DNA from: an uncultured virus (IMG/VR IMGVR_UViG_3300042364_000900) | Taxonomy: Duplodnaviria; Heunggongvirae; Uroviricota; Caudoviricetes | IMG/VR virus record: IMGVR_UViG_3300042364_000900 | Length of the DNA stretch: 64,000 bases | Reading direction: 5' to 3' (one strand) | Shown here: one piece after another, positions 1,228 through 62,848 of the stretch | How the letters are laid out: the number at the start of each line of letters is the position of its first letter | Position numbering within the stretch: the first letter of the stretch is position 1 | The notes under the pieces: generated by a model | Told to the model about the DNA's origin: nothing | The model's input: only the letters and a program-made list of their open reading frames with translations | Database searches by the model: none | Position numbers and translations under genes: made by a program

Positions 1228-1650
1228 ATGAGTGTAAAACAATTCAGAAAAGCTTCTCATGCTGTCTTTAGCATTCACTTGCACATCGTTTTTGTGACGA
1301 AGTACAGGCGCAAGGTTTTGACCCAAAAGATGCTGGAAGCAATGAAGCCTGTGTTTGAAAGAGTTCTCGAAGCCAATCAGAGTATGCTGACCGAGTTCAA
1401 TGGTGAATCCGACCATGTTCACCTGCTGATTGACCTGCATCCTGACAACAATATTTCAGACCTGGTTGCCTCGTTGAAATCAGCATCAAGCCGAGTAGTG
1501 CGGCAGGAGTTCAAAGCAGAAATTGACAAGGTTTATTCGGGGAAAGCGAAACTGTGGCATGACTCAAAGTGCATTGTTTCTTGTGGCGGTGCCCCACTTG
1601 AGATTGTCAAGGAGTATGTGCGGAGTCAGTCAGGAGGGCGAGAGTCTTGA
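1228..1650 (+). CDS. tnpA: IS200/IS605 Y1 (HUH) transposase TnpA
   Basis: HIVFVTKYRR, HUH motif DHVHLL, LKSASSR, catalytic Tyr helix VKEYVRSQ. Confidence 0.95.
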   Translation: MSVKQFRKASHAVFSIHLHIVFVTKYRRKVLTQKMLEAMKPVFERVLEANQSMLTEFNGESDHVHLLIDLHPDNNISDLVASLKSASSRVVRQEFKAEIDKVYSGKAKLWHDSKCIVSCGGAPLEIVKEYVRSQSGGRES

Positions 1651-14918: not shown

Positions 14919-15593
14919 TCAGGACTGCCCAAACTTTTGCTGGAGCAGGTTGCTGGCAGGAGTCATCGGCGAGATGTCGTCGCTCGGGGGTTCGATATGG
15001 CTTAGCATCCTGCCGACAGACTTGCAGTTGTCGCTCTCTTGAGTGCCCGCTTCAGTCGCCCTATGCATTTCGCGGCGGTTCTGCAACCGGATCTCTGGCG
15101 GCAGATCGTCAGCCGAAAAGATCTGGTCAGGCAACAAGAATCGGGAACTCAAGTGGTTTGGTTGGGGGGCGATCGTCTGTTGGGCTAGCTTCTCCCACCC
15201 GGTGATACCTTGTATCCATGTGTTGAATCCCATCTGGGCAAATTTGGTCAGGCTGAAGATTGCGCCCTTTTTCCCCTTGCTGGCGTAATGAGCAATTACT
15301 GCAACGCAAAGTTCTGACTTGTAAACCATCAGGTTTCCAGGATCAACCCCATCGACAGTTTTTTCATTTCTCCAGTCAACCAGGACAAAACTCTGTTGCA
15401 CGACTTCTTGAAGTCCTTCAATCCCGGTTTCGAATTGTTTTCTGATCAGCCTGCTGACAGTGGTCTGATCAACGCCGCAAAGTTTTGCCAATCCCGACAA
15501 GCTTAAGCCTGACTCACCAGTCGCTTTGTCGGTGAAGAACAAAACGCCATCTTGCTCAAAGGTCAGTAGTTCAATCGACATCGCTATCTCCAT
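14919..15593 (-). CDS. phage antirepressor-like / KilA-N-like DNA-binding protein
   Basis: TGESGLSLSGLAKLCGVDQTTVSRL HTH and FAQMGFNTWIQGITGW, a pattern typical of cyanobacterial prophage regulators. Confidence 0.55.
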   Translation of the reverse strand: MEIAMSIELLTFEQDGVLFFTDKATGESGLSLSGLAKLCGVDQTTVSRLIRKQFETGIEGLQEVVQQSFVLVDWRNEKTVDGVDPGNLMVYKSELCVAVIAHYASKGKKGAIFSLTKFAQMGFNTWIQGITGWEKLAQQTIAPQPNHLSSRFLLPDQIFSADDLPPEIRLQNRREMHRATEAGTQESDNCKSVGRMLSHIEPPSDDISPMTPASNLLQQKFGQS

Positions 15594-27534: not shown

Positions 27535-27811
27535 AAAAGGTCAGACTCGCTTTAACGGCTTTGATGACAAGATTCTATCCCTCTATGCCAGGGGGATGAG
27601 TACCCGTGACATTGCAGATCAACTGCAAGACCTCTACGGGGTTGAGGTGTCGGCTGGGTTGATCTCGAACGTCACCGAGGCTGTGGAGGAAGAGCGCAAA
27701 GCGTGGCAGAATCGAGCGCTGGACTCGCTCTATCCCATCGTCTATTTCGATGCCATTGTGGTCAAAGTTCGACAAGATGGACGGGTTATCAACAAGGCGA
27801 TTCACCTGGCG
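27535..27811 (+). pseudogene. IS256 family transposase internal fragment
   Basis: [18 protein letters not shown]...[10 protein letters not shown]...[24 protein letters not shown]. Confidence 0.9.
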
Positions 27812-27880
27812 CGTGGGGAAGATACATTGCACTGCCTGTATTTTAGCGCGATCGCTCCTTCTAAGTATTTTGGAGGAAGA

Positions 27881-29341
27881 TCAGCGAAATGGGACTGCTG
27901 GCCCCCCATTGCCAGACACTGGGGGACGTGGCTGAATCGTGACGAATGGGTCAATTGGTTCGCCGTTGCGGCGGATTTCGAAATGCAGATGATTGCCAAA
28001 TGAGTGGCCTGTGTTGCCCATTTCCCCTAAATCCTGATTTTGCTCTACCTTTGTTCCTGGCGCGATGCTGTCCGCCACCTTCGACAAGTGAGCGTATCGG
28101 GTTTCATCGCCATTGGGGTGTTGAATAAAAACTCGATTGCCGTAGCCGCCTCCACAGTTTACGTCCCCCACTTGGCAATTACGAACCACGTCTTTCACGA
28201 TGCCATCGGCAGACGCGACAATTCTACGGTTGGAACCTGCCAGATCGATTCCCTTGTGGTTTGACCCGGTCGATGCCCTCCAGCCCATCCGTGAGATGCA
28301 GGCATTCCCGACGCAGGGATTGGCGTATTGCGTTGGCTGGGAGGTGACCGTAGGACGCGGCATCGGTGCAATGCCTTGATCTGGATTATTTAAAAATATC
28401 TGTGGCGGAGGAGTATTTGGATCTGGTTTGTATCCGTACAGTTCTGCCTGGATGCCGCCTGGTGATAGTGGATAGAAAATAATTTCATCGCAGGTATAAG
28501 TTCCGTCTAGATCTGTTGCGATGCCTTTTACTTCAAATGTTTTTTGGGCATCTAAATTCAGGATGGACGGGTCTGCGTAGACATTTAGTAAACAACGAAT
28601 TTCGTGAGATCTCAGGTTGTCGAGTGCGTGAAGGCCGAGTGCGTAGGAGAGTGCATCGCCTTGGGATTGTGGGTTGTGGATGCCCGCAATAGTTCTGGCG
28701 GATCCAGATCCAGGGTCAATGCAGCCAAGGCCAGCTCCTTGATTGATCGGCATTGCACCGATTGCGGATGGATCAATGCCTCGATCGAATAATTTAAGGC
28801 AGCGATCGACGGATGCCGAAAATTTGTCGAACCCGTTAAGTCCGCCATTGACAGCTTGACGCACGCCGCGCCAATCACCACGTTCTGCCGACCGTTGTGG
28901 ATTGTTGCCGGTTGCGCCTTTCCAGTACCACATAAAGATTCGGGCAGCGGTGGCTGGCTCCAGCGCCATATCTGGGTTAGCGGTGAGGCCCGGTATGTTG
29001 AGATCGCGTTCAGCCTTCCGGTAGTTACTTTCCCAAGTAAGTTGCACATAGCCCCTACCGAACCAGGGCGAATATGGAGCGGTTGTGCCGCCAATTTCAC
29101 GCACCGGGGCAAAACGTGGCAGTGTTTCTACATGGATTGTTGACATTATTGCGATCAACTGATTTCGGCTGGTTAGACCAGCCTCTGCCATCGCCCGCAG
29201 GATAAAGGGCAGGTTTCGTTCTAGTGTCCTACGTTCTGCATCTGGGAACGCCTGTAGCATCAAATCGACAGGCGGATATATTTGGCTCCCGGGAACCGGG
29301 ATCACGTCTGTTGATCGTTGTGGCGATATAGGGGTATTCAA
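27881..29341 (-). CDS. tail-associated lysin: GH19-like glycosidase + hub C-terminal-like domain + M23 peptidase
   Basis: HVET...[11 protein letters not shown]...VNGGLNG; middle [16 protein letters not shown]...YGN......H......YAHL...GNTGHS.G.HLHFEIR. Confidence 0.85.
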
Positions 29342-46800: not shown

Positions 46801-49200
46801 GGCGATCGCTTCCTCATGGCCGCCAGCATCGTGGGTCAGGGCTTCGGCAGCATGACAATGGGGGCGTTGGCGTTTGGGGTAACTTCCCTCCTGAGCCTCG
46901 GCCCCGTAATCCTGACGCTGGGGGGCATCGGGTTGGCGGCCCTGGCGGTCGCGACCAACTTCCTGGGGTTACGCACCATTGTGGTGGGGGCAATTCGGGC
47001 GATCGTCGGGATTGTCCAGATCCTTGCCACAACCCTGAAGGGGGTGGTTCAGATCACTGCGGGTCTCACGAGAGTGCTGGCGGGTGCCCTCGCGATGCTG
47101 GGGGGCAACTTCGAGATGATCCATCACGGGATTGCCCAGGTGATCCAGGGGGTCAACACGATTTCGTTCGGGTTGGGTCAGGGTTTGCGAAATCTCATCG
47201 GGGGAGCCGTCCAGATGCTCCGGGGTGCATTCCAGGGATTGGGGCAGGTGGCACGCTTTACCCTGGGGGCAATCCAGCGGTCTGGAGCGTTGATCGCAAC
47301 GACATTCCGGCAGATCATTCAGTTGACCAAAGGGGTTGGCAATGCTCTCCTGAATGCCCTGACGCAGCCCCAGAAAGCTTGGAACCGATTTGTAGGGACA
47401 CTCCAGCAAGCCAAAAATGTCATCAGCAGGATCGCACAGTCCCCCCGGATTGCTGCCGATACTGTTGGGCTGGGGGCCAAAGGTAAGGCCCCCAGAATCC
47501 CGGAGAGCTACCAGATGGCTGAGTTCGATGATCGGCTCCGCAGTATCCCGTTTGTGGGGAATTATCTGGCGAATCAACAGGCCAACAACCCCGAACGTTT
47601 CAATGCACTGTCGGATGCGTTCGCCGGACTGACCGGGGTTTTGTCGGCACTATCCCCGGCGCTCGCGGCCCCATTGATGCTGTTCAGCGGATTGCTCGAT
47701 AGCGTCGTGATGCTGGCGACCTCAATCCCGATCCTTAAACCGATGATCCTTGGGTTTGCCGCCACCCTCAAGGGTATGGGGACTGCCGCCGGGTTCGCCG
47801 CCACCATGAACACGGCCCTGACGACTGCTCAAACTTTCTTGACGGGTGCCCTGACGATCGGGATGGGGGCCGCTAAAGCCTTCTGGGCTGCTATCAGCGG
47901 CCCACTCCTCCCGGTTGTCGTGGCGATCGGCCTGATTGTCGCGGGAGTCTGGGCGTTACTCCAGGCGTTCAATGTATTCGGCAGGATCGGCCAGCTCATC
48001 GGCGGAATCGTCCAGTCATTCCGGGAAGCTTGGGGCATTATTGACCGGGCATTCCGAGACGCGTTTGGCGGCATTATGATCGCGCTTAATCAACTCGGTG
48101 ATGCGATCGCGTCACCGTTTGAACCGCTGCTCCAGCTATTTGGCGCATCGGGCGGCGCTGGCCTCGCGGGCCTAATCAGCGGGACATTCCGGATAGCCCT
48201 TAACCCGATCCTCCTGGTAGCCCAAGGGATTGGGTTGGTGGTGCGGCTAATCGGTGCCGTTGTCGCCGGTGTGATCCAGGCGGGCGCATACATCACCCGG
48301 AAGCTGTTGTCACCGGTGGCGATCGCGCTCGAATGGATTATCGGTGCATTCCGGGACACCTTCGGGTTCATTGGGGAAACCCTCATGGAGGTAGGGAACT
48401 CCCTGGCGGAACCATTCGAACCGCTCCTCAATATGTTTGGAACCAGCGGCGCGGGCGGGCTGGTGGATCTGCTGGGCCGTGGAATTTCGATGCTCCTATC
48501 CCCCCTGGAGATCCTGGGGTTTGCGGTCTCGATGGTGGTGCGGCTCTTTGGAGTCGTCCTGGTGGGGGCAATCCGGCTGGTCGGGACAGTCCTGAAGCCA
48601 ATCATCTCCGTTATCCTGACGCCATTCCGGGTGATCGCAACCGTAATCCAGGGGGTTGTATGGCTGCTCCAGCAGATCCCAGCCCTCATGAGCGTGATTG
48701 CGAACGGCCTCTTGAGTGTTGTGCCCGAACCACTCCGCTGGTTGGTTGAATCCGCTCAAAAGATCACAGGGAATGGTCCCGCCGCTACGGGACCGACACC
48801 CCAGCGGTTTAGCACAGGTGGTCTCGTCACCGGGCCGTCCGGTGGCGACGTTATCCCCGCGCTCCTATCAAACCGGGAATTCGTCGTTAACCAGAACGCA
48901 ACCCGCCAGAACCTCGGGTTCCTTGAGGCGATTAATGCAGGGGTCCCGGCAGAGAAAGCCCTGGGCCTCATGCAGATCGCACCTCCCCCAATTGTCCGGC
49001 CTTCCGCCCAGGCGATCGCAGCCCCCGCCGATGCAACTCAACCCATTAGCGTTCAGGTCAACCTGACGTTCACGGGCAACATCATGGTGTCGGGCAACTC
49101 CGGGGAGGAAGTCGCATCTGAAATGATGCAACATCTCGAACCAAAGCTACAGATCGCCATCAGGGAAGCACTCCGCGATATGGTTGAACGGATGCGCTGA
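37825..49200 (+). CDS. phage tail tape measure protein (TP901 family core), 3791 aa
   Basis: FNDQMAQVKAV...AKELGASTRFSASEAA...LAQAG...LNLASAG...GLKGEMAGSAL, then long amphipathic repeats. The start may be TTG 37834 given GGAG spacing. Confidence 0.95.
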   Translation: MLVLAESERYGLFASFRFDAGTQDFAAMNRVVAGLRGIEEAARTTEQSLQSARLGQEVRRQMRSAAGSTATLERPLKTLRQEFRALRAESRNIDFGELGDTRQFKAATQQVHQYVDALESLGNQIEHNTSLEREFAAVVKRQQRIAQERIDMAEQQRKAAVAAQRLAGAQAVQQIGQAVAAPLGAMGRDSIKILSDFNDQMAQVKAVSDMTARELETVRNRAKELGASTRFSASEAASGFVLLAQAGYEVEDQLRAIDGTLNLASAGNLDLARATEITVSTLGQFQLEADKASHAANVLAMAAAMGQLDVSDIGESLKYAGVSAKRAGLSLEQTASMLALLSEGGLKGEMAGSALGQMLDGLVAPASTGAAALANLGVQTTDATGKLLPYEKILGRTIEALSKVSDESERASIQNKIFGVVGGRAAGILTPRYERIAKATAEIGKSADAGVGAAIKQSRIMEDTLGGSFRNFSSAMEGLKISLVEPLEPIIRAIIDTGSAVASFFAGLPGPIRGVISVGMGLTFVLAGLSAAIATVGIAAFGMQQAAATSSVGLLALRSSAIPLTGFFQTAMGAFSASGLAGLRRFAADLTLLPGPLGQVMVLIRGVGMAIATTPFGMAIAGFAALLALAEVLTPGFDLLGTTITLLVAPFRILGGLASGVLQGFGAAIDEISGQRLSPVAQEFAEFAKGLIDQIDSLEMSANSLGQSIGKAIAKGLAPLFTVQAAISRAIFSIWRGTITAITHAFDPLLRFARWVGNMLVSSLAENSPGPTAQIRQRWDETVQHVQDVMGQLVGTAQQVGQAVWQAFSWVAEGVARLFREVFGHLLVSRLVKQTDVLGVRIHNRVFGLLNDILTLPVELGSPATMFFDGLLARLTVVEEVLVAIAPAMRIALTGIIPVTLQSQIVDLNNSLLNYIRSLGGVEGVVMRSVGSFDLLLKVASFLFKAMARYPGLMAGLRQGLTVLGRFAGLAGLILSLADSLRTLSFLAQGLQRVLANMGVPSGWLDPVITGLNQTIQAVQNARQAFVGFARSILYGDWGSAAQQFSSAWTDSIALVQRMLGSPLLADLQVFSPGSMKSVLDDQKTWINSLQADVSLAIANPIVLLAAGIKAGKSLGKAITTGLVKQIDGVAKKFVSDFSTKLNATSGAALSVALLSLFFAPAGIPRLIAGFAPALVVALTNSGVLQKVQAWIVKGFGGLLERVDQAFGRQEWLHRLGEAFGLLDVIAKGTGTVIDTLAKSMSVRLGAAIAIVSPTVQSLINSLKEIYQIGGVPAVLQNLQVITRPLALALQQIASSIQQMGTALAGLAATSPLFRQLMASVGTAANLLMRIPLVEQLGAFAVSMGLGRRLMGMGQSAVSTAQQGGKVAINGMQQVIQLMLWIGQGVYQIAEPGGTSLKKVPSLLSRILGVASKILNPLPALVGLSGKATDAGGIPRITPVDILSQFLPEFLIPATEKAIAGTKVRKILAARQPGFEEFDPFKQRELVGRYVERLSNPLGLINTPLFGPVVMASIELVGGSLLGLIATIGLAAGALYVFKPELAKPLAGFFQVLAKGVVGLAFVLVQLGHSSRDAADSIDVLGLKLKAPGWAIATSKALNAMIRAVGAVAVAFTQVVDFALGIVPTLIRSTLLLVPIAFIGITKLMLQAIQGVLRRVRDDTKRLGDAIVAGVRQGDWSQLGSILKEAFMNALNVTLIPIARLVKYIAWDLIISPIASAVWWGLTTVGNAIGSVLLHPIRTINFLVNAIKAIGVAVASIRLVGLLQAFTRVSTVVYEFESAVGTTGVAIAAIATVASVALDPIIALVMGAVVAIGVLVQSYRDNFSVLTAVINGLQWAISSLQERMATLVQVFATPIKPLDWLFSPIANFLSGAGDKFVQWFPTILAAFVGLQVARKGLVGGFVSAFSIIAKAILSVVSAISQAITGMIRLGGKTREFSQTLEGEVMIEQARRVGRRAGQRFGLFQSNEPQAIQAERDQQFLEKSAIVRFRKSVQQTLKKTGGSLESISEEVLQQLAAKSRLDTSGVPGVVPLRELAARDSGQLEEIRDLYQQNIDNLKTADMRAQTVTLVSDKVEASNVVSITRGTTRKLSTPEDVSSLRFGAAELRALANMPGGERLRSGAGLSQEASRLETTLGEAAKRLEDIPLSVLKNLAQAVGVYQPRTSRDEDYRFLNTYKDQLDKQGLPGVQKQLLMLQILARTDQIPTPQELTKGIVSAEEALKAIHGALEHLYRAANVKGEGQADAFNQMAIDTLRGQLPFLTNQDVANVISLLDKNPNPDRIMMALQQVLDTQVDLFLQDSPIFTPVQEAAQKMEQVIQTTATEAIAQMPKGGLWAGLGKRLKVAVHDFMDSDRVRSFIENRQEQKQQRQIAAMTEQRRMRVAAIQRNSGASNQLDFLRRIGAIQDPTTQILEQRQRPVPSAPSSLPPAPPPPREYPMLPDPWEETEAERFFKGLARFTRSLRRQIPEVSEQTVEFFRTINRDGERSLERVNVVPLYRRMLMGAAGGARQALNQAATLFDRRAGIKPPEILQKPSGESPRIAGLLPAAREPVAPSQPGGNIQNPFKEIERGIWMFGTFYSTDKIKSAWKRTSDVIQNGIWPRLVNSAKQVGRKILSYIAENSPGPTAQIRQRYHETADSVVADMHHMEAAAARTGQKIKHSLVGGVGRAGVAIFGALSATGFATQSIASSLSTLGILDESTSDALFKFTELFSIVGAVGSLAAPLFGAVAATLGALIPIITTVGGAIATFLIGPIGLASGAIIGSLLLINEATKRLFGIDFIAPVVGRVMMMANAIRQPLDWAANWIEARWQQFRDRFAPILAPIVEPALEVAQQLINALNHNPTEVIPLAWEEAVQRIIGWISQLPGIGEWAAKQLNKVMQPGGVLSRWGATVKRWFSDLKQSPDGAVIAPTKKELPPLPPPPKVTAAEQWGDMMTALQRSGDPSQVLTPGLDQATYGFQFLLKSARQFGEESGAALKRLDFGALTGSAKAFGDRFLMAASIVGQGFGSMTMGALAFGVTSLLSLGPVILTLGGIGLAALAVATNFLGLRTIVVGAIRAIVGIVQILATTLKGVVQITAGLTRVLAGALAMLGGNFEMIHHGIAQVIQGVNTISFGLGQGLRNLIGGAVQMLRGAFQGLGQVARFTLGAIQRSGALIATTFRQIIQLTKGVGNALLNALTQPQKAWNRFVGTLQQAKNVISRIAQSPRIAADTVGLGAKGKAPRIPESYQMAEFDDRLRSIPFVGNYLANQQANNPERFNALSDAFAGLTGVLSALSPALAAPLMLFSGLLDSVVMLATSIPILKPMILGFAATLKGMGTAAGFAATMNTALTTAQTFLTGALTIGMGAAKAFWAAISGPLLPVVVAIGLIVAGVWALLQAFNVFGRIGQLIGGIVQSFREAWGIIDRAFRDAFGGIMIALNQLGDAIASPFEPLLQLFGASGGAGLAGLISGTFRIALNPILLVAQGIGLVVRLIGAVVAGVIQAGAYITRKLLSPVAIALEWIIGAFRDTFGFIGETLMEVGNSLAEPFEPLLNMFGTSGAGGLVDLLGRGISMLLSPLEILGFAVSMVVRLFGVVLVGAIRLVGTVLKPIISVILTPFRVIATVIQGVVWLLQQIPALMSVIANGLLSVVPEPLRWLVESAQKITGNGPAATGPTPQRFSTGGLVTGPSGGDVIPALLSNREFVVNQNATRQNLGFLEAINAGVPAEKALGLMQIAPPPIVRPSAQAIAAPADATQPISVQVNLTFTGNIMVSGNSGEEVASEMMQHLEPKLQIAIREALRDMVERMR

Positions 49201-49672
49201 CATCCTCCCCACGGCTAGAAGCCGGGGGGTTCCTGAACTGCCGTTGCCCTTTCGAGTTGCCCCTACTGAGGTCTTACACGCCATGTCCGATCCGAGCTTA
49301 CTAGAATATCCCTTGACATCTAGGTGCCCACTTCTGGATCGCTTTCCAGGCATCAATTCCCGTGTGCCCCACGGTACTCAAAGTTCTGTTTGGTTTTCGC
49401 AGTCGTTTGATCTGCTTAGCTGTTTAGAGCGTGTTCGCTACCGCTTTGCTGTTCTATTTTCCAGGCAGTCGTGTGGCACTGTTCCAGCCATATTTGTCGG
49501 GCACGTCCTGGCGGCATTTCAACCTGAAGCAACGCAATCTTAGCAGTTTTGGGTTGACCCCGACAAATAGTTGTCCGTTTCGGCTAATCGCTCCAACGGA
49601 CTTGAGAGGGGATGCTAAATCCCCATGTCTGAAGCCAGGGGCATTGCATCCCCTCTCAATCTCTCCCCTTCG
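49197..49672 (-). mobile_element. non-autonomous IS605-family element (476 bp) with omegaRNA-like right end, inserted 3' of TTAC
   Basis: Minus strand: TTAC, left-end hairpin (49602-49659), ...GAGTACCGTGGGGCACACGGGAATTGATGCCTGG..., right-end hairpin, GGATGTCAG. Confidence 0.82.
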
Positions 49673-49707
49673 GTAAGCCCTATAGACGCGATCGCATCCT
49701 GATGCTA

Positions 49708-49759
49708 AATAGTGATTACACCCCAGAATCCACAATGCTTCTGGGGTGTAATCACTATT
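49708..49759. repeat. inverted repeat with 21-bp arms
   Basis: AATAGTGATTACACCCCAGAA / TTCTGGGGTGTAATCACTATT. Confidence 0.7.
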
Positions 49760-49805
49760 ATTAATTGACGGCAATATATTGGTTTAATATAATTATATTA
49801 AGGCT

Positions 49806-50010
49806 TTGACACTCCCCACCGCATAGGCGGATGGGGATTCTTTAATCTACGAACCGACTTGCATGGGTGCAAGTAATCAAGGTTTCAAACCAGCCAGAGC
49901 ATTCCTGGCTGGTTTGAAACCTTGATTACTTGCGTCCAGAGCCGCGATGATCGGGCGGCTGATGGTTGCGAGTGCCAGAAGCCTGAGTGCGGCGTGGCCC
50001 GCCCTCGACG
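49806..50010 (-). mobile_element. IS605 right-end / omegaRNA-like remnant containing a palindrome with 29-bp arms (49869-49933)
   Basis: Minus strand AGGGCGGGCCACGCC...GCTTCTGG (tnpB tail-like) ... AAAGAATCCCC-hairpin-GTGTCAA. Confidence 0.6.
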
Positions 50011-50098
50011 GGGGGATCTTCGCTCTGGTTGCGAACAATGGGAGTCGGATCGGCGACGGGTGGAAGGTCAACGGGTTGAACAAAAAAGAAAAATGGCA

Positions 50099-50323
50099 TT
50101 AGAAGGGTGCTCCATGTAACTGCATCATTCGGCGGCTGTACGCCTCCTTTGCGATCTCGTGGAACCCTTCCTCAACATCCCGCTCCAGGCTCAACGGAAG
50201 GCTTAGTTTGGCGCAAACACGCCCATAAGCTACCGCGTCACCCCTGCAATTGATTTTTTCAGACTCGTTCAACGGTGTATCCGCCAAGCGTTCACGGTAT
50301 TTTTTTGAGTGGGTAAGTTGCAT
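50099..50323 (-). CDS. small hypothetical protein
   Basis: MQLTHSKKYRERL..., 74 aa. Confidence 0.5.
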   Translation of the reverse strand: MQLTHSKKYRERLADTPLNESEKINCRGDAVAYGRVCAKLSLPLSLERDVEEGFHEIAKEAYSRRMMQLHGAPF

Positions 50324-50439
50324 AATCAATGTGGACTCTTAGAAGGGTTCCAATCACCCCCACTGCGACGGCCTCGGAAACTGGCGCAGTGGGGGTTTTG
50401 GTTTGCGGTTAACCTCCACCGCAAGGGGCGATCGGAGTG

Positions 50440-50646
50440 CTACGAGAAATCAGACAGATCGGCCACCAGCCCCAAGGATTGCGCCGCCTCAATCAACCCC
50501 TCTTGAGAAGCAACCAGTACCGACACACCAGAATCCTTGATCGCCTGAGCCGCGATCGTCACATCCTCGAAATCAGCACCCGCAGACGGAAGATTCAGCG
50601 CTTCCGCGATCGTGCCGTCTTGAGTCCAAATGGTCGTAATAGCCAC
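50440..50646 (-). CDS. small acidic hypothetical protein
   Basis: 68 aa, GAGG RBS, 10 D/E versus 1 K. Confidence 0.65.
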   Translation of the reverse strand: MAITTIWTQDGTIAEALNLPSAGADFEDVTIAAQAIKDSGVSVLVASQEGLIEAAQSLGLVADLSDFS

Positions 50647-50698
50647 AACTTTTCCTCGCTCGATTTACCTTGGTTTGGGGCCGCCCCGTGCGCACCGA

Positions 50699-50851
50699 TT
50701 ACTCGGCGTCAAACTCGGCCAGAACCTCGTCGAGGACTTCCAGCGCCGCCAGGTAGCGGGCGCTGAATTCCTCGCGCTCCTCGTCGGTTTGGTACTGAGC
50801 ACCAATCGACTCGGCGGAAGCAAACAGAGCGGACAGGGTGGAATCGGACAT
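50699..50851 (-). CDS. small highly acidic protein (50 aa, below the ORF-track cutoff)
   Basis: GGAGG RBS; MSDSTLSALFASAESIGAQYQTDEEREEFSARYLAALEVLDEVLAEFDAE, 13 D/E versus 2 R. Confidence 0.7.
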   Translation of the reverse strand: MSDSTLSALFASAESIGAQYQTDEEREEFSARYLAALEVLDEVLAEFDAE

Positions 50852-50995
50852 GGGGTGAACCTCCAAAAAAACAACTCAACAAAACGTCCTTTCGGACTGG
50901 GATGAGTTATCTCAACAGACGGGCCTTTGTCCTCAGTCCCGGAACCCACTCCGGCGGGGAGCCTTTTTAAGGGGAGGCGCACCCCGCATGAATCT

Positions 50996-51067
50996 AAATT
51001 AACTTATTACGTTAAACCCGTCAAGAGAAAAGTTAAACTTGACTCGAAGCACTGAAAACATTAGTAT
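50996..51067. promoter_or_regulatory. back-to-back sigma70-type promoters with an inverted-repeat operator
   Basis: Leftward TTGACG-17-TAATTT (51024-50996); rightward TTGACT-17-TAGTAT (51039-51067); TTAAC-N7-GTTAA at 50999-51015. Confidence 0.7.
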
Positions 51068-51110
51068 AGACCTGTGGCACTCTACACAAGACAATCAAGG
51101 AGGTAATTCA

Positions 51111-51356
51111 GTGGTTCAAGCAGTCGTGGAAGTAATTCGCACAATCAAGGTATCTGCGCCCGAACTGGGCAAGCGCATTCGAGAGGCAAGAAAAGCCGAC
51201 GGGCGATCGGTCACCCAAATTGCTGCTGCTGCTGGGATGTCCGTCCAGAATTGGTATCGAATTGAGGACGAAAAGCAGGCATTACCAGAAGATACGCTCA
51301 GGCTAATTGAGAAGGTGTTGAGCGTTGATTTTGGCGTGAGTTTTCCGGGCCAATAA
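51111..51356 (+). CDS. XRE-family HTH transcriptional regulator
   Basis: GGAGG RBS before GTG; LGKRIREARK...SVTQIAAAAGMSVQNWYRIE. Confidence 0.88.
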   Translation: MVQAVVEVIRTIKVSAPELGKRIREARKADGRSVTQIAAAAGMSVQNWYRIEDEKQALPEDTLRLIEKVLSVDFGVSFPGQ

Positions 51357-51584
51357 AAAACGATCGCCCCCTCTCAAGACAACCACAGAACCTTGCTGCA
51401 CCAGTTTCTCGAACGCCACCCGATCGCCCGCACTAACCATCTGCACTGCCTTATCTAATGCAGCCTCAGAGGTAGCGGCGATCGCCCCTTCCACCGTGAA
51501 ATACTGCCCCGTTGGCAGCTCACTCTCAGGACGCGCTTCTACCTTCGGCTTTTGCTTCGGCCCCATTATTCCGATCTCGGTCAA
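51303..51584 (-). CDS. hypothetical protein or gene fragment downstream of the CRISPR mini-array
   Basis: Protein-like sequence, but weak start and 3' overlap with the HTH gene. Confidence 0.35.
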   Translation of the reverse strand: MTEIGIMGPKQKPKVEARPESELPTGQYFTVEGAIAATSEAALDKAVQMVSAGDRVAFEKLVQQGSVVVLRGGDRFLLARKTHAKINAQHLLN

Positions 51585-51624
51585 CTCTGCTCAGCCGTGT
51601 AGTGAGCGTGCCGAGCTGTTCGGG

Positions 51625-51776
51625 CGACTCACCCCTATGTGCGTGGGGAAGGCTGATGTAGCGCACTACTTCGATGGTGGAAGCGTAGACTCACCCCTAT
51701 GTGCGTGGGGAAGGCTAGTGAGATCATCTCACTTACCTCAGTCAAAGCGACTCACCCCTATGTGCGTGGGGAAGGC
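51625..51776 (-). CRISPR. orphan CRISPR mini-array, 3 repeats and 2 spacers, type I-E-like
   Basis: 29-nt repeat GCCTTCCCCACGCACATAGGGGTGAGTCG (minus strand; 28 nt identical in all three) at 51625, 51687 and 51748; unique spacers of 33 and 32 nt; CCCC..GGGG hairpin. Confidence 0.9.
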
Positions 51777-51935
51777 ACATTGCCCTGCCAGCATCAAAGC
51801 CTGATTGCCCCTACCTAAGTCTCGAAACCTGGGAACTATAAGGCAACAGGATAGCGATCGCTCCCGAATCTACACTATTGTAAAGAAAATAGCCAAGACC
51901 CCAGCGGGTTACAGAACACGAGAGAGCTGGGGCCA

Positions 51936-52787
51936 ATGGCTCGCACCCAAAGATTAAACCAACTGCAGGAAAACTTCTGCAACGAATACCTGGAAGACTT
52001 TGACGATCTGGAAGCAGTCCGTCGAGCAGGGTATCGATACAACAGCGATGCGGATCTAAACCGGATTGCGGGGGGGTTGCTAAGGAATCCTACGGTTCAG
52101 CAGCGGATTGCTGAATTACAACTTGAGCGAGCGCCCCTGACCGAGATGCAGAAGCGGGCCGCTCGCTACTTTGTTGTGGGGGGGTGTACCCAGACAGAAG
52201 CGTGCCGCAAGGCTGGGTATAAGGGCAATGATGCGACCCTTTGGGTTACGGCTTCGCGCCTCTTCAGTCGCCCAATGTTCAAACGGTATCTGGTGCGGCT
52301 CAACCGGATGTTGATTGAACGCTACATGGTCGATCACGACTGGGTATTTGAGCGGGCGAAGGAATGGATTGATTCCAGCAATGTCCAGATCACTGACGTG
52401 GCGGTGTTTCGGAATGGTCGAATCGACAGCATCAAGGATCTGTCGAAGTTGCCGCCCCACGTCGTCCGGGGCATCAAAAAGATTCGCCAAACCGAAACAA
52501 CCATCGGGGAAGATGGCACCCGGATCGAATACGAGATTGAGATGCGCGGCCCCGAACGCGCCGCCTTGGCGCTGATCGCCCGCCACATTGGGTTTGGAAA
52601 CGACTACAACGCTGCCCTCAATACACTTCACCGCTACGGCTACGAGGTGAAGGAACTGCCAGACGGCACCCTTGAGGGACGCCCATTTGATGCACCGCTG
52701 CCAGACAACGATCCATCCGAGGGATTCGATTTTGATGGCCTTGAGGTGCTCCCGCTGGTTGAGCTGGATCAGGAGTCTGATGCCTGA
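51936..52787 (+). CDS. terS: terminase small subunit with duplicated N-terminal HTH
   Basis: LNQLQENFCNEYL......AVRRAGY...LLRNPTVQQRI, then a second unit LTEMQKR...TEACRKAGY...SRLFSRP. Confidence 0.85.
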   Translation: MARTQRLNQLQENFCNEYLEDFDDLEAVRRAGYRYNSDADLNRIAGGLLRNPTVQQRIAELQLERAPLTEMQKRAARYFVVGGCTQTEACRKAGYKGNDATLWVTASRLFSRPMFKRYLVRLNRMLIERYMVDHDWVFERAKEWIDSSNVQITDVAVFRNGRIDSIKDLSKLPPHVVRGIKKIRQTETTIGEDGTRIEYEIEMRGPERAALALIARHIGFGNDYNAALNTLHRYGYEVKELPDGTLEGRPFDAPLPDNDPSEGFDFDGLEVLPLVELDQESDA

Positions 52788-54832
52788 TGTACGCGCTCGA
52801 TAGCGATCACCAACGCCGCTACCCCAGGAAGACCCGCCAGACCCGACGACGGCAGCAGGAAATCACCGCCCAGGAGCGCCGCCTTGATTTCTCGGCCCAA
52901 CAGGCACTGGAACGGCAGAGCGGAATAGATCTCTGGTATCGCCTCGGAGGCGATATGTTTCTCCAGTGGGCCAAGAGCCATTACCGCCGCAGCAACGGCG
53001 AGCCACTCCACTGGATTGAACCAACCCAGGAAGAGTTTTACCTCGTGATGGGGAACCCCTGGATTGAATTCCTGGTGGTCGAGAAGCCCTCGCAGGTTGG
53101 ATTCACCGAGTCCCTCATCGCGATGCTGGGGTTCATCCTGGCGGAAGTTAAGATTCCGTGCGGCCAGGGCTTCGAGGCAGAACGCAAGCTCCGGGAACTG
53201 GTGCCCAGGATTCAGTCCACATTCGATTTCATTGATCGGATCCAGGCAGTCCGGCGATCGCGCCGTGCCGCAACGGGTCGGAAGGATGTGGATCACAAGG
53301 AACGGAAAATGACGGTCGGGGGCGTGGAGTGTACGTTCTGGTACGCCAGCACCACCACCAAAAACAAGCAGGAACGACAAGCATCCAGTACGCTGTCGAG
53401 CTTCCCGGCCTGGTACCAGGGGGCAGACGAAATCGAACTGTACCCAGAGGGCGTCATTGATGTCGCCAAAAAACGGATGGCCGCGAGCACGCTCCAAACA
53501 AAACCCTTCAGGGTTGGGAGTACTCCCGGCCACGAGGGCGGTATCGTCGATTCACTGGTCCGCAGTTCACTCTACTTTTTCCAGTGGCGTGTCAGGTGTC
53601 CGGCCTGCGGGGAATCACAATTTCTGGATGGATTCGGCAACCTGCTGCAACCTGTCGCGCAGGAGCTGGATGACGGCACCGTTGAGGAACGGTATGTGGA
53701 TGTGACGGGCCGCCCTCTGAAATGGTTCTGCTACGACGACAGCACCCGGCGACTCAGCATCGATACTTCTTACATTGGATGCCAGCACTGCGGAGCCGAA
53801 CTACCCGAAGCGGCGATCGAATCCATCCCGCAGGGTGGAACTGGCGAATTCGTTTGCGTCAACACTGGTGCAAAACTCCGGGATGTGTGCCGCGACCTGA
53901 CACTCCGGCAGGAACCGCTCCATGATTCGGTGGCGTTGCGGCTCCCCCGGCTCGCATCCAAACTGTTCAATCCTGCCGAAACAATCCGGGATCTGATGAC
54001 CTCCCGGAACACTGCTGACGCGATCCAACAGGGCCTGGGCCGAGCCATCACGATCGGGGTCGGGAAAATCTCGCTGCCGCGCCTCCAGCGATCCAGCGGG
54101 TTGGCGTTGCCAGACTGGTGTCAGAGCCGCGCTCCAGATCTGGTTGTCCTGGGGGGTGACCAGGGCAGTGCATTCAACTATGCGGTTCGAACCGAATGGT
54201 ATCTCCCGCCAGATGAGCCAGATCCAGAAGTCCGCTGGCTCGGTGCCCATGTGGTTCTGAGTTGGTGGGGCCATGTCTACGGGTTCGACGGGGTAGAGGA
54301 TGAGATCGCCCGCCACGGCATTGATCTGGTGGGATTCGACGGTGAGCCGGAGAAACAGTTGGCTGCTGCATTCGCCCGGAAGCATCCCGCCCAGGCATTC
54401 TGGTACCAGAAGCCTGTGACTGATAAGGGTACGACCTGCTACCGATCCGGCGATCGCAAAGGCGCGACATTCCTGTTCGATCAGGTGCAGCTCAAGGGCG
54501 AAACATTCCGCCGCACTGAACGGAATATCCAGGATGAGCAAGTCCCGATCTATGCGCTCCACCGCACCTTCGGGTTAGATGCGGTGCGCGATCGCATCTA
54601 CCGGGGGCAGCTCCACATGCCGGAAGGGATGCAGTACGACCCGCGCGATGAAGAAAACCTGTTCCTCCACCTGTTGGCGAGCGAACGCCGTACCGATGGA
54701 ATCTGGAGCCAGACCCCTGGTATCCCGGATCACTACCACCATGCCTTGTGCTTCGCCGAGATGGCGGTTCTGGCTGCATTCTACGAACCCAGGCCCAAAC
54801 GGTTGGCGTTCGGCTCTTTCAAGCGAGGTTGA
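52787..54832 (+). CDS. terL: terminase large subunit (lambda gpA-like)
   Basis: VVEKPSQVGFTE (Walker A variant), GADEIE (Walker B), GSTP, CPACG, nuclease GGDQG...DHYHHA. Confidence 0.9.
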   Translation: MYALDSDHQRRYPRKTRQTRRRQQEITAQERRLDFSAQQALERQSGIDLWYRLGGDMFLQWAKSHYRRSNGEPLHWIEPTQEEFYLVMGNPWIEFLVVEKPSQVGFTESLIAMLGFILAEVKIPCGQGFEAERKLRELVPRIQSTFDFIDRIQAVRRSRRAATGRKDVDHKERKMTVGGVECTFWYASTTTKNKQERQASSTLSSFPAWYQGADEIELYPEGVIDVAKKRMAASTLQTKPFRVGSTPGHEGGIVDSLVRSSLYFFQWRVRCPACGESQFLDGFGNLLQPVAQELDDGTVEERYVDVTGRPLKWFCYDDSTRRLSIDTSYIGCQHCGAELPEAAIESIPQGGTGEFVCVNTGAKLRDVCRDLTLRQEPLHDSVALRLPRLASKLFNPAETIRDLMTSRNTADAIQQGLGRAITIGVGKISLPRLQRSSGLALPDWCQSRAPDLVVLGGDQGSAFNYAVRTEWYLPPDEPDPEVRWLGAHVVLSWWGHVYGFDGVEDEIARHGIDLVGFDGEPEKQLAAAFARKHPAQAFWYQKPVTDKGTTCYRSGDRKGATFLFDQVQLKGETFRRTERNIQDEQVPIYALHRTFGLDAVRDRIYRGQLHMPEGMQYDPRDEENLFLHLLASERRTDGIWSQTPGIPDHYHHALCFAEMAVLAAFYEPRPKRLAFGSFKRG

Positions 54833-57691: not shown

Positions 57692-58351
57692 ATGTCAGGA
57701 ATTGATTTTTCAGGATTGTCAGATGAGCAGCTTCTACAACTGCTGACGGAAGCGATGGCCGAGGCGATGAACCGGGGTGAGGTAGTGCGCCTAGCAGCGC
57801 AAGATGCCGTGCTTTCTACAGAGGAGAAGCTCCAAATTCAGCAGCGAGTGGCCGCTCAATACGCAGAGCGAAAGCTGCAGGAGGAGCGGCAGAGGGTAGA
57901 GCGTGAGGCCGAAGAAAAGCACAAGGCCAAAGAACTCAAGCAGCAAGCCGAGAAGACCGAAACACTCTGGTCAGCTCGTGCTGCGATCGTTGCCGCCATC
58001 CGTCAATGGGGCTACGACGGGGATTTTGAGATAAATATTTGGTCCAGCGGAGCAGATCGACGGGTTTACTTCCAGAAGACTGTATCCAGCGGTCGCCGTG
58101 GCTTTACAGCGGAGTGGAAATTCTGCCTGTATGTAACGGGCAATAATTACCAGGCTCCCGGTGCATTTATCGGTGAAGGTGCCAATTGCTGGTTTGACGA
58201 CAAGCAGGAATTGCTCCAAGCGTTTCTGCTTGAAGTCGCAAACGCATGGAAGGGCGACATGAAGATGTCTTCCGATACGGGAACCGCAGAGCCATCTGAG
58301 AAGTGGCTGAAGAAATACCTGGCAGTCCTCAATGGAGGAGTCTCAAAATGA
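57692..58351 (+). CDS. hypothetical protein (coiled coil plus globular domain)
   Basis: AGGAG RBS, 219 aa. Confidence 0.72.
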   Translation: MSGIDFSGLSDEQLLQLLTEAMAEAMNRGEVVRLAAQDAVLSTEEKLQIQQRVAAQYAERKLQEERQRVEREAEEKHKAKELKQQAEKTETLWSARAAIVAAIRQWGYDGDFEINIWSSGADRRVYFQKTVSSGRRGFTAEWKFCLYVTGNNYQAPGAFIGEGANCWFDDKQELLQAFLLEVANAWKGDMKMSSDTGTAEPSEKWLKKYLAVLNGGVSK

Positions 58352-61408: not shown

Positions 61409-62848
61409 TTGACTTCTCCCCCGCATGAATGACGGGGGATTCCCAAGTGATGCTACGCAACGGGCTGAAGCCGCGTTGCTTCGCTTTTCCCTTGAGCTGT
61501 CACCCACAACTTAATGCGGGTGGGGGCAGTCAAAGACCCCCTACCAACTCCGCTCAGACTAAATCCAAGCATCGTCGCTACTTTACGCAGAATGTTGGCA
61601 GCGCCATTACAATCCGCGTTGATATACCAATTCTGAGCAGTCCTGAACAACCCCCGCTTCGTTCGCTTCCCAGATGACTTCCAGCTATCAGGTTTTTCAC
61701 CGAATGTCGGCAAAAAGTCATCATCCACAAACGACGCTTGAGAGGTATACGACTCCTCAGTTTCAACAAACTCTATCCCATGCTGCTCTGCTAACTGAGC
61801 AATGCGCTCTTTCAGCTTTGCAGTTGGGATCTGCACAAACTTCTGATTGGTCTTCTTGCCCAGGTTGGAGCCGTCCTTTTGCCGCTGGTTCCAGCCAAAT
61901 ACAATTCGTCCAATCCGGTTTTTGATGCAATGGTCAACGACAATCCGCGCTGCCTTGTTCACCGCGTCGCGCATCTGACGATTGCGTTTCTCGGTGAGTT
62001 GAGCAAGTCGTTTCGACCAAAAGTCCTGTGACTTGCCCTCTTTCAGCGAGGCAATCTGTTTGTTGTGCCAGCGGTTCAGCGATTTGAGGTGCAGTCCATC
62101 CACAATGAAGCTGGTTCCCACATTGCTGACGCAGGTGAGCCAATTATTCAGTCCCGAATCAATCCCCAGCACCCGCATCGGGTCTACATCAACTTGGACG
62201 GGTTTCAGGCGATAGACAAACTCAGTGTAGAAACACCCGTTGCGCGGCAGAATCCGTAGTTCTTTAATGTCCTCAAATTTGAGGTTAGAGGGCATTGGAA
62301 CGGTGAACGAATCAATCTGGAACCACGTCTTCACCAACTGCCCCAGCGGAACCCGGATCATCCCATCAATCAGTTTCAGCGCTTGTTTGGGATAGCTGAC
62401 TACTGCCAACCCTCCCTTCTTCCGGTAGTCGGGCAATTTGGGCTTCTCTGCCAACTCTCCGTCCCGCCACAGCTTTGACAATGCTCGATACGACTTGAAT
62501 GACTCGTAGACTGAGCGAAGAACTTGTTGTGCAGCTTGGGAATAGAGAACTTGGAAGTGCTTACTGGATTTGTACTCAGCATCCAGGGTGAATTTGCCAA
62601 TCCACCGCCCGGTCTTGAAATGCAGTTGACGGGCATAGTAGATGCCCTGATTAGTCAGCTTGTTCGCCTCAGAGCAGATAAACTCCACCACCGCCCTGAG
62701 TTCGTTGTTGGGGTTAAGTAAAACTTGCTGGCATCCAAACATAAGACAATTGTACCAACTATTTCATCTCACTGGGGGCTAAAGCCCCTTGAGTTGACTG
62801 TATCCCCTCGCTGAAGCGGAGGGGCTTTAGTCTGCCCACATCGCCTCA
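61409..62848 (-). mobile_element. tnpB-only (IS1341-type) IS200/IS605 element, 1440 bp, inserted 3' of TTAC and ending TCAA
   Basis: Hairpins at 62804-62824 and 61418-61438; removal restores the CYTH frame and the F-D-Y-E-I-P motif. Confidence 0.9.
61453..62742 (-). CDS. tnpB: TnpB, Zn-finger-less subfamily
   Basis: LGIDSGLNN, IVFGWN (no canonical RuvC-II Glu), TEESYTS, INADCNGAANI. Confidence 0.92.
   Translation of the reverse strand: MFGCQQVLLNPNNELRAVVEFICSEANKLTNQGIYYARQLHFKTGRWIGKFTLDAEYKSSKHFQVLYSQAAQQVLRSVYESFKSYRALSKLWRDGELAEKPKLPDYRKKGGLAVVSYPKQALKLIDGMIRVPLGQLVKTWFQIDSFTVPMPSNLKFEDIKELRILPRNGCFYTEFVYRLKPVQVDVDPMRVLGIDSGLNNWLTCVSNVGTSFIVDGLHLKSLNRWHNKQIASLKEGKSQDFWSKRLAQLTEKRNRQMRDAVNKAARIVVDHCIKNRIGRIVFGWNQRQKDGSNLGKKTNQKFVQIPTAKLKERIAQLAEQHGIEFVETEESYTSQASFVDDDFLPTFGEKPDSWKSSGKRTKRGLFRTAQNWYINADCNGAANILRKVATMLGFSLSGVGRGSLTAPTRIKLWVTAQGKSEATRLQPVA

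Follow-up and report, generated by a model that had tools for sequence, protein, structure and literature searches.

A cas-less mini-array of the type I-E CRISPR repeat family beside the terminase genes of a cyanobacterial phage-like element

What is a three-repeat CRISPR (short palindromic repeats, clustered and regularly interspaced) array without cas genes doing next to the terminase genes of a phage-like element, and can it still work there? The question is raised by a 64-kb stretch of DNA, given as one strand and hereafter called the window, from an uncultured virus assigned to Caudoviricetes (IMG/VR record IMGVR_UViG_3300042364_000900), in which an earlier note, made by inspection of the letters, had placed an orphan type I-E-like mini-array at positions 51625-51776. 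By its sequence, this array is an authentic CRISPR locus whose repeats belong to the type I-E family; at present it is most likely inactive, and the explanation that we tentatively favor is that, within the sampled host lineage, it is an idle passenger or relic.

A repeat search of the window returned three direct copies (51624-51653, 51686-51715 and 51747-51776), whose starts lie 62 and 61 nt apart; the first and third copies agree throughout the 30 nt, and copy 2 deviates solely in its first two plus-strand bases. When the repeat is taken as 29 nt long, 28 nt are the same in all three copies, and base 29 reads G, T and G. The 25-nt core of the repeat occurs three times in the window, with no further occurrence at up to 3 mismatches, and zero matches to it were obtained in 100 dinucleotide-preserving shuffles. 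A 29-nt repeat, unique spacers of 32-33 nt and a period of 61-62 nt are the geometry of a type I-E array, and the coordinates and sizes that had been proposed, three 29-nt repeats with 33- and 32-nt spacers, were reproduced exactly. In I-E arrays, the 29th base of the repeat comes in with the spacer during adaptation; the variation of this base thus fits real acquisition by Cas1-Cas2e. No class-1 cas gene was detected among the 66 open reading frames (ORFs) of the window scanned with Pfam or the 45 scanned with PADLOC, in agreement with the claim that the 64 kb hold no cas genes; the only Cas-like matches are two IS605-type TnpB/Cas12f-like genes (1-1167 and 61453-62742). With its two spacers, no cas genes and a position on a phage-like element, the array has the architecture of a mini-array. 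In the search of the whole window against Rfam, no family reached the gathering score; two microRNA matches that appeared within 51500-51950 at E ≤ 10 were rejected as chance matches caused by a palindrome in spacer A.

To assign the array to a repeat family, its 153 nt were searched by permissive BLAST against 72,556 plasmid records. Five records matched, three of them via two periodic pieces spanning 95% of the query, and in the two of these three that were inspected, the match falls in an array that carries no annotation and directly adjoins type I-E cas genes. In the Klebsiella pneumoniae plasmid NZ_CP079158.1, a full cas3-casA-casB-cas6e-cas7e-cas5e-cas1e-cas2e operon adjoins the matching array; in the Enterobacter asburiae plasmid NZ_CP074179.1, the I-E operon is interrupted by an IS21 element and cas7e is not annotated. 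Both plasmid arrays have a period of 61 nt, and the arrays of the Cse1-bearing genomes among the sampled Cyanobacteriota likewise consist of 29-nt repeats with a 61-nt period. The window repeat was then compared with reference repeats by an ungapped script, against 2000 shuffles. It matches the I-E repeat of the Cyanobacteriota genome G158 at 23 of 29 positions with shift 0, the Klebsiella and Enterobacter I-E repeat at 22 of 27, and those of the Cyanobacteriota genomes G098 and G019 at 19 of 29 each, values that none of the 2000 shuffles reached, and the I-E repeat of a fourth Cyanobacteriota genome, G086, at 17 of 29 (reached by 4 of 2000). Four non-I-E cyanobacterial repeats, three from genome G008 and one from the related locus L001 (both described below), scored at chance, with 11-13 matches reached by 671-1746 of the 2000 shuffles. 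This in-register homology indicates that the window repeat belongs to the I-E repeat family and has the same boundaries; the designation of the locus as an I-E-like mini-array is thus borne out by repeat homology, length and period. Taken in the orientation of the query, the Klebsiella cas operon, and hence its array, lies on the minus strand, so that the CRISPR RNA (crRNA) strand of the window array is the minus strand and the leader side extends from 51777 upward, facing terS. This agrees with the proposal that the leader is shared with the region upstream of terS. Searches with the exact repeat core gave 0 matches in the collections genome_contigs, viral_contigs and metagenome_contigs, and a two-core pattern gave 0 matches in metagenome_contigs and viral_contigs.

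The hairpin of the repeat sets the window array apart from its relatives. On the crRNA strand, the stem of all five reference I-E repeats (5/5) spans 7 bp and closes a loop of 4 nt, with fold energies between −11.7 and −15.1 kcal/mol. The minimum-energy fold of the window repeat on that strand has a 9-nt loop at −7.3 kcal/mol, the same value as on the other strand, and is no better than that of shuffled sequences (z = −0.10). In its 3′ arm, the window repeat has A at two positions that are G in the references, which corresponds to C-to-T changes on the plus strand; the three basal G-C pairs of the stem are kept, and two of the upper pairs turn into C.A oppositions. The stable 7-bp/4-nt-loop stem-loop used by Cas6e is thus missing from the crRNA strand, and the description of the copies as hairpin repeats, put forward in the earlier note, does not hold for the strand on which it matters. 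G.U pairs result from these changes on the plus strand, where a 6-bp/4-nt-loop hairpin that includes two of them persists (−7.3 kcal/mol), but its geometry is wrong for an I-E crRNA, with just 5 nt after the stem. Because both changes are present in all three copies, either the variant repeat predates the two spacer insertions or the copies were homogenised later.

A cas-less array depends on its host, and the nearest available host genomes appear to lack the type I-E machinery. As stand-ins for a lysogen, we used G008 and G009, fragmented assemblies of the grade of metagenome-assembled genomes (MAGs) from related strains that belong to the same order as G001, the genome that contains L001. 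A 477-nt dispersed repeat of the window has 16 matches in G008 (best 98-99% identity) and 14 in G009 (78-96% identity), and one spacer of a 59-repeat G008 array (L044 2986-3025) matches a protospacer in the window at 40 of 40 positions. This last match is direct evidence of CRISPR targeting of the element by a related cyanobacterium and puts the element in the host range of the G008 lineage; it implies that this lineage has met the element, which makes G008 the best available host stand-in, and that the region to the right of terL belongs to the mobile element. The protospacer sits in a 219-amino-acid ORF (57692-58351), and the repeat of the G008 array is 36 nt long. Other CRISPR-Cas components are present in these genomes, with six Cas1 matches in G008 and four in G009 and at least three arrays with 34-36-nt repeats in G008, the three repeat families of which are unrelated to the window repeat. 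However, none of the four I-E signature proteins, Cse1 (PF09481), Cas6e (PF08798), Cas7e (PF09344) and Cas2e (PF09707), had a match in G008 or G009, and the window repeat, with as many as 3 mismatches allowed, is missing from G008, G009 and G001. Across 57 genomes of the order, the repeat gave two single matches, the same level as a control pattern. Cse1 scored above the curated cut-off in 1 of these 57 genomes and in 3 of 401 sampled Cyanobacteriota; the positive case in the order, G019, encodes Cse1, Cas7e and Cas2e on one contig, which ends 71 nt past cas2e with the first repeat visible at the contig end. The comparison with host arrays thus yielded no similar repeat in the nearest host-lineage genomes, and a host without a compatible I-E system, which the earlier note had named as the outcome that would speak against its proposal, is what both stand-ins appear to represent. 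The suggested hijacking of host Cas proteins is opposed by three results: G008, the best stand-in, has other CRISPR systems but none of the four signature proteins, I-E is rare, and the canonical hairpin is lost.

The two spacers are not related to one another, and neither has a further match in the window at up to 3 mismatches, as had been concluded by eye. Beyond the window, the searches of host, cyanophage and plasmid sequences that had been proposed as a check identified no target for either spacer in the collections covered: only chance matches of up to 15 nt in the loci compared, among them the 7 related terL loci; none in viral_contigs, either as exact full-length spacers or as exact 22-nt parts; matches of 23-25 nt at E ≥ 2 only in phage and plasmid records; none at up to 3 mismatches in the 401 sampled Cyanobacteriota; and no match in five host-like genomes. 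The targeting of related viruses that would mark a mini-array was accordingly not seen in the related loci, viral_contigs or the phage and plasmid records. Compared by blastn-short with the I-E loci of G086, G098, G158 and the two plasmids, the spacers gave matches of at most 11 nt. A perfect 8+1+8 palindrome of 17 bp (51717-51733) lies within spacer A and has no second occurrence in the window.

The leader side offers few signs of expression. The putative leader is not AT-rich (50.9% GC, compared with 53.5% for the window), and a promoter scan found no sigma-70 consensus promoter on its minus strand; several TAnnnT hexamers are present in the leader. Cyanobacterial promoters often lack a −35 box, so that the missing consensus promoter is weak evidence. 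No similarity was found between the leader side and the G019 or Klebsiella leader or the 3′ end of cas2, and no Cas2e remnant adjoins the array; of the putative leader, only the approximately 45 nt nearest to terS are shared with L001. Contigs of a 2020 and a 2024 metagenome run, the two runs that cover the array fully, carry it in identical form, with no difference throughout 49807-53200, and four metagenome runs, analyzed as contigs, contained no array variant, no joints and no indels. Given that the 2020 and 2024 runs are both possible sources of the window, the identity of the array between them is weak evidence of stasis.

The array is carried by a phage-like element of cyanobacterial DNA (Table 1). 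The window contains 85 GCGATCGC sites of the highly iterated palindrome HIP1 in its 64 kb, a richness that identifies it as cyanobacterial. The claim that the array lies next to terminase genes on a phage is confirmed by Pfam and PHROG matches, with terS and terL adjoining each other. The best named homologue of TerL is from Thermoleptolyngbya sichuanensis (75% identity), and TerL has no relative in viral_contigs. The order of a very long tape-measure gene followed by terS and terL is unusual and is common to L001, where the tape-measure gene (>3000 amino acids) runs off the start of the locus. Further products encoded in the window are a baseplate hub, two peptidoglycan hydrolases, a replication initiator, ParB, two DNA methyltransferases and a Mom-like protein. 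The label of a temperate phage, also given in the earlier note, gains no support, as no integrase family matched any of the 66 ORFs scanned. At 36 kb from the array, a minus-strand gene (14919-15593) encodes a 224-amino-acid protein that matches the PADLOC profile PDLC01151 (E = 3.8 × 10−30), a profile for a protein with two helix-turn-helix (HTH) domains whose C-terminal domain is often fused to Cas6; it may be a phage-encoded CRISPR-linked regulator. The first of the two TnpB genes (minus strand) belongs to an IS200/IS605 unit at the window start, together with a TnpA Y1 transposase gene (1228-1650, plus strand), and the second sits at the other window end; a fragment of a Mutator-family transposase gene (27596-28003) lies within the tail and lysis region.

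Table 1 Features of the array, its surroundings and the phage-like element (positions in the window).
Feature	Position	Strand	Remarks
Repeat 1	51748..51776	-	29 nt; leader-proximal (orientation from homology); base 29 = G
Spacer A	51716..51747	-	32 nt; 38.7% GC
Repeat 2	51687..51715	-	28 nt same as in other copies; base 29 = T, not G
Spacer B	51654..51686	-	33 nt
Repeat 3	51625..51653	-	Leader-distal; not degenerate
Putative leader	51777..51935	-	Coincides with the 159-nt intergenic region before the terS start
93-amino-acid ORF	51303..51584	-	87 amino acids from ATG at 51566; directly downstream of the array
Xre-type HTH regulator	51039..51356	+	Pfam HTH_31, HTH_3; PHROG transcriptional regulators; convergent with the 93-amino-acid ORF
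477-nt dispersed repeat, MITE-like (miniature inverted-repeat transposable element)	49200..49676		Directly after the tape-measure gene
Accessory island, ~2.7 kb	49201..51890		Between the tape-measure stop and the conserved terS upstream stretch
Tape-measure protein, 3791 amino acids	37825..49200	+	Followed by terS and terL on the same strand
terS, terminase small subunit	51936..52787	+	Pfam Terminase_2 (2.1 × 10−23); phrog_51
terL, terminase large subunit, GpA type	52787..54832	+	Pfam GpA_ATPase; 41 homologues
Protospacer	57758..57797		40/40 match to a spacer of the 59-repeat G008 array (L044 2986-3025)

The accessory island comprises the 477-nt dispersed repeat, short repeats and hairpins, small ORFs, the HTH gene, the 93-amino-acid ORF and the array with its leader. 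It is absent from L001, where approximately 75 nt separate the tape-measure stop from the terS start (blastn, ORFs). Transcription from the leader side would take in both the array and the 93-amino-acid (87-amino-acid) ORF, the product of which shows weak similarity to a repeated domain of giant proteins (10 proteins at E ≤ 10−3, itself included) and matches no Pfam, PHROG or PADLOC family. Inside this ORF, three HIP1-centered 14-nt repeats with spacings of 60 and 58 nt (51361-51492) probably reflect just the density of HIP1. Divergent from the HTH gene, three minus-strand ORFs of 76, 68 and 55 amino acids (50099-50866) have no family match; together with the HTH gene, the small ORFs look like a small regulated cassette, a candidate for a toxin-antitoxin or anti-defense unit. 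Metagenome contigs break, with raised depth, at 49197-49836, and one run contains the 477-nt repeat without the phage. A second repeat of approximately 40 nt (49802-49848), at which contigs also break, is present in G008, G009 and a Nostoc plasmid stretch annotated as TnpB. No match to the 6-kb region was present in phage records; one, 37 nt long, lies in a Nostoc plasmid, in a stretch annotated as TnpB.

A profile scan of genome_contigs with TerL recovered 7 related loci. The closest, L001, comes from a Cyanobacteriota MAG and encodes a TerL that is 76% identical to that of the window; its tape-measure gene and its terS-terL genes align with their counterparts in the window. A TerL of 95% identity, from a closer relative, occurs on a Logan contig. 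In the 5 related loci that extend upstream of terL, the upstream sequence held no repeats, and a degenerate repeat pattern had 0 matches in the 7 loci. L001 has a cas-less CRISPR-like array of its own, 2.4 kb downstream of terL (L001 14429-15406, G001:C79:23727-24699), with 14 exact copies of a 35-nt repeat (35-36-nt class) that contains a HIP1 site and with spacers of approximately 35 nt. No cas family matched any of 12 ORFs scanned in the 10-kb stretch downstream of the L001 terL, and the repeat of the L001 array has no other copy in G001. The genes downstream of terL in L001 are not common to the window, so that the L001 array may lie inside or outside the phage.

How might such an array have come to its place? 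Its structure suggests construction by type I-E Cas1-Cas2 adaptation machinery, which would have added two spacers to a single template repeat; two additions to one template yield three identical 28-nt repeats, a period of 61/62 nt and a variable 29th base. The array would then have been captured into the cyanobacterial phage-like element as part of the accessory island. Without cas genes of its own, it could act solely through the Cascade and Cas6e of an I-E-bearing host: transcription would begin in the 159-nt region between the array and terS, on the minus strand, and cleavage by Cas6e would release two crRNAs of approximately 61 nt with the 5′ handle GUGAGUCG. That the array is most likely idle follows from the combination of a host lineage that appears to be without I-E proteins and two transitions that remove the canonical hairpin. 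Several observations weigh against an idle passenger or relic. The three repeats are perfectly identical and the distal one is not degenerate, which is as compatible with maintenance by selection as with a recent origin; the base of the stem keeps its three G-C pairs, and a Cas6e may still accept the C.A oppositions. Strains differ in their CRISPR-Cas content, and the absence of I-E proteins from G008 lowers the chance of an I-E-bearing lysogen without excluding one; an I-E operon exists in the same order, in G019, so that an I-E-bearing host is possible. The missing protospacer matches carry no information in this respect, and the cas-less array of another family in L001 hints that arrays may be selected cargo in this phage group.

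The observation that the repeats are identical to each other also belongs to a reading in which the mini-array is functional: in I-E lysogens, Cas6e of the host would process the transcript, and the two crRNAs would guide Cascade-Cas3 against competing phages or plasmids, that is, would provide superinfection exclusion. The full-length 32/33-nt spacers, the exact I-E geometry, the location of the accessory island beside structural and packaging genes, the occurrence of I-E in the same order (G019) and the second orphan array in L001 all argue for this possibility, as do the precedents of viral mini-arrays (PMC11656645) and of cyanophage N-1 (PMC4916379). We nevertheless regard it as possible but rather doubtful, given that G008 and G009 contain neither the four I-E signature proteins nor a similar repeat, that the canonical Cas6e hairpin is lost, that no array with identical repeats exists in the collections scanned, that searches of the related loci, viral_contigs, phage and plasmid records and sampled Cyanobacteriota turned up no protospacer, and that the leader is not AT-rich and shows no consensus minus-strand promoter. 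The weakened stem, present in all copies, has a different significance if the array is an RNA anti-CRISPR directed at a host I-E system, either a decoy for Cas6e or Cascade subunits (Racr-like) or a repressor of cas promoters (like Cracr arrays). Phage Cracr arrays with two or three spacers aimed at I-E are known, and a repeat defect impaired processing there (10.1101/2024.10.29.618823); the array also lies among small ORFs without a family and an HTH gene. Yet the spacers are full length (32-33 nt), compared with the 21-24 nt reported for the Salmonella CracrIE, and match at most 11 nt in the I-E loci of G086, G098, G158 and the two plasmids. Moreover, Racrs are solitary repeat units (PMC11656645), whereas the window has three repeats with two spacers and no extra copy, and the sampled likely hosts have no I-E system to inhibit. 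An RNA anti-CRISPR is, on balance, unlikely.

A related scenario, which we judge quite improbable, builds on the two transitions fixed in three repeats and on the survival of a canonical-style hairpin only in the antisense orientation: the phage lineage would routinely carry cas-less arrays of different families beside its packaging genes, the I-E copy, perhaps disabled deliberately so as to escape processing, being a processing-resistant RNA decoy or regulator against the rare I-E systems of its hosts rather than a supplier of guide RNAs. The retention of the hairpin on the plus strand only could also be read without reference to CRISPR, as could the 17-bp perfect palindrome in spacer A and the position of the array 159 nt upstream of the terS of a GpA-type terminase; the repeats would then be binding sites for the terminase or a regulator, a structured plus-strand 5′ leader for terS, or a minus-strand leader for the 93-amino-acid ORF. 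We consider such a function very improbable, because the in-register homology to I-E repeats, together with the 61/62-nt period, is too specific for convergence, because L001 packages its DNA with homologous terS/terL and yet is without such repeats upstream of terS, and because the palindrome of spacer A is unique in the window.

An idle passenger or relic, still our tentative preference, can be set beside the known systems. Viral mini-arrays with 1-2 spacers, such as those of the Saccharolobus portogloboviruses SPV1 and SPV2, and mini-arrays of prophages are described in the review PMC11656645, and they resemble the window array in having one or two spacers and no cas genes, in residing in a viral or proviral genome and in the need for a host effector. 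In that account, their repeats are identical to those of the host and their spacers are mostly directed against related viruses, whereas neither feature was found for the window in the genomes and collections searched. Nostoc cyanophage N-1 (Chenard et al. 2016, PMC4916379) is likewise a phage of a filamentous freshwater cyanobacterium with a cas-less array, the spacers of which have no database match; its five 37-bp repeats belong to the cyanobacterial DR5 (I-D) family, are similar to host arrays, and the array is transcribed during infection. The window differs from N-1 in its three 29-nt I-E-family repeats, I-E being rare in Cyanobacteriota (3 of 401 sampled). CracrIE of Salmonella enterica Se29 (Liu et al., bioRxiv 10.1101/2024.10.29.618823), from a study with 219 Cracr candidates, among which closer parallels may occur, is also a prophage-borne, cas-less array of I-E type, with three repeat-like and two spacer-like units and with a repeat defect affecting the Cas6e hairpin; there, however, the spacer-like parts measure only 24 and 21 nt and find their matches in cas promoters via the CreR elements of the host, compared with 32-33-nt spacers without a known promoter match in the window. 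Authentic I-E arrays (NZ_CP079158.1, NZ_CP074179.1, G158, G086, G098 and G019) have the 29-nt repeat and 61-nt period in common with the window and coincide with its repeat at 17-23 of 29 positions, but consist of 12 to 57 or more repeats with adjacent cas genes and a 7-bp/4-nt-loop hairpin, as opposed to 3 repeats, no cas genes and a broken stem. Finally, cyanophage vB_AphaS-CL131 (PMC6293099) resembles the window in that its repeat is unlike the systems of the known host; it is reported to have 10 spacers, repeats of 36 nt and a TnpB/V-U2-like gene next to the array, whereas the TnpB genes of the window are approximately 10 kb and 50 kb away from its array.

Thus, cas-less phage arrays are already known, two cyanophages included. 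Three features are unusual here: an array of the I-E family carried by a cyanobacterial phage, a repeat at odds with the CRISPR repertoire of the probable host, and hairpin-weakening changes fixed in all copies. For a phage of filamentous cyanobacteria, an I-E array stands out in that only approximately 1 of 100 sampled Cyanobacteriota genomes has an I-E signature gene. The array also offers a natural test of the extent of stem damage that a Cas6e tolerates. If active, it would mark a hidden population of I-E-bearing hosts and phage-against-phage warfare in lake cyanobacteria; if idle, it would record past residence in an I-E host and would show how arrays are moved between lineages by phages.

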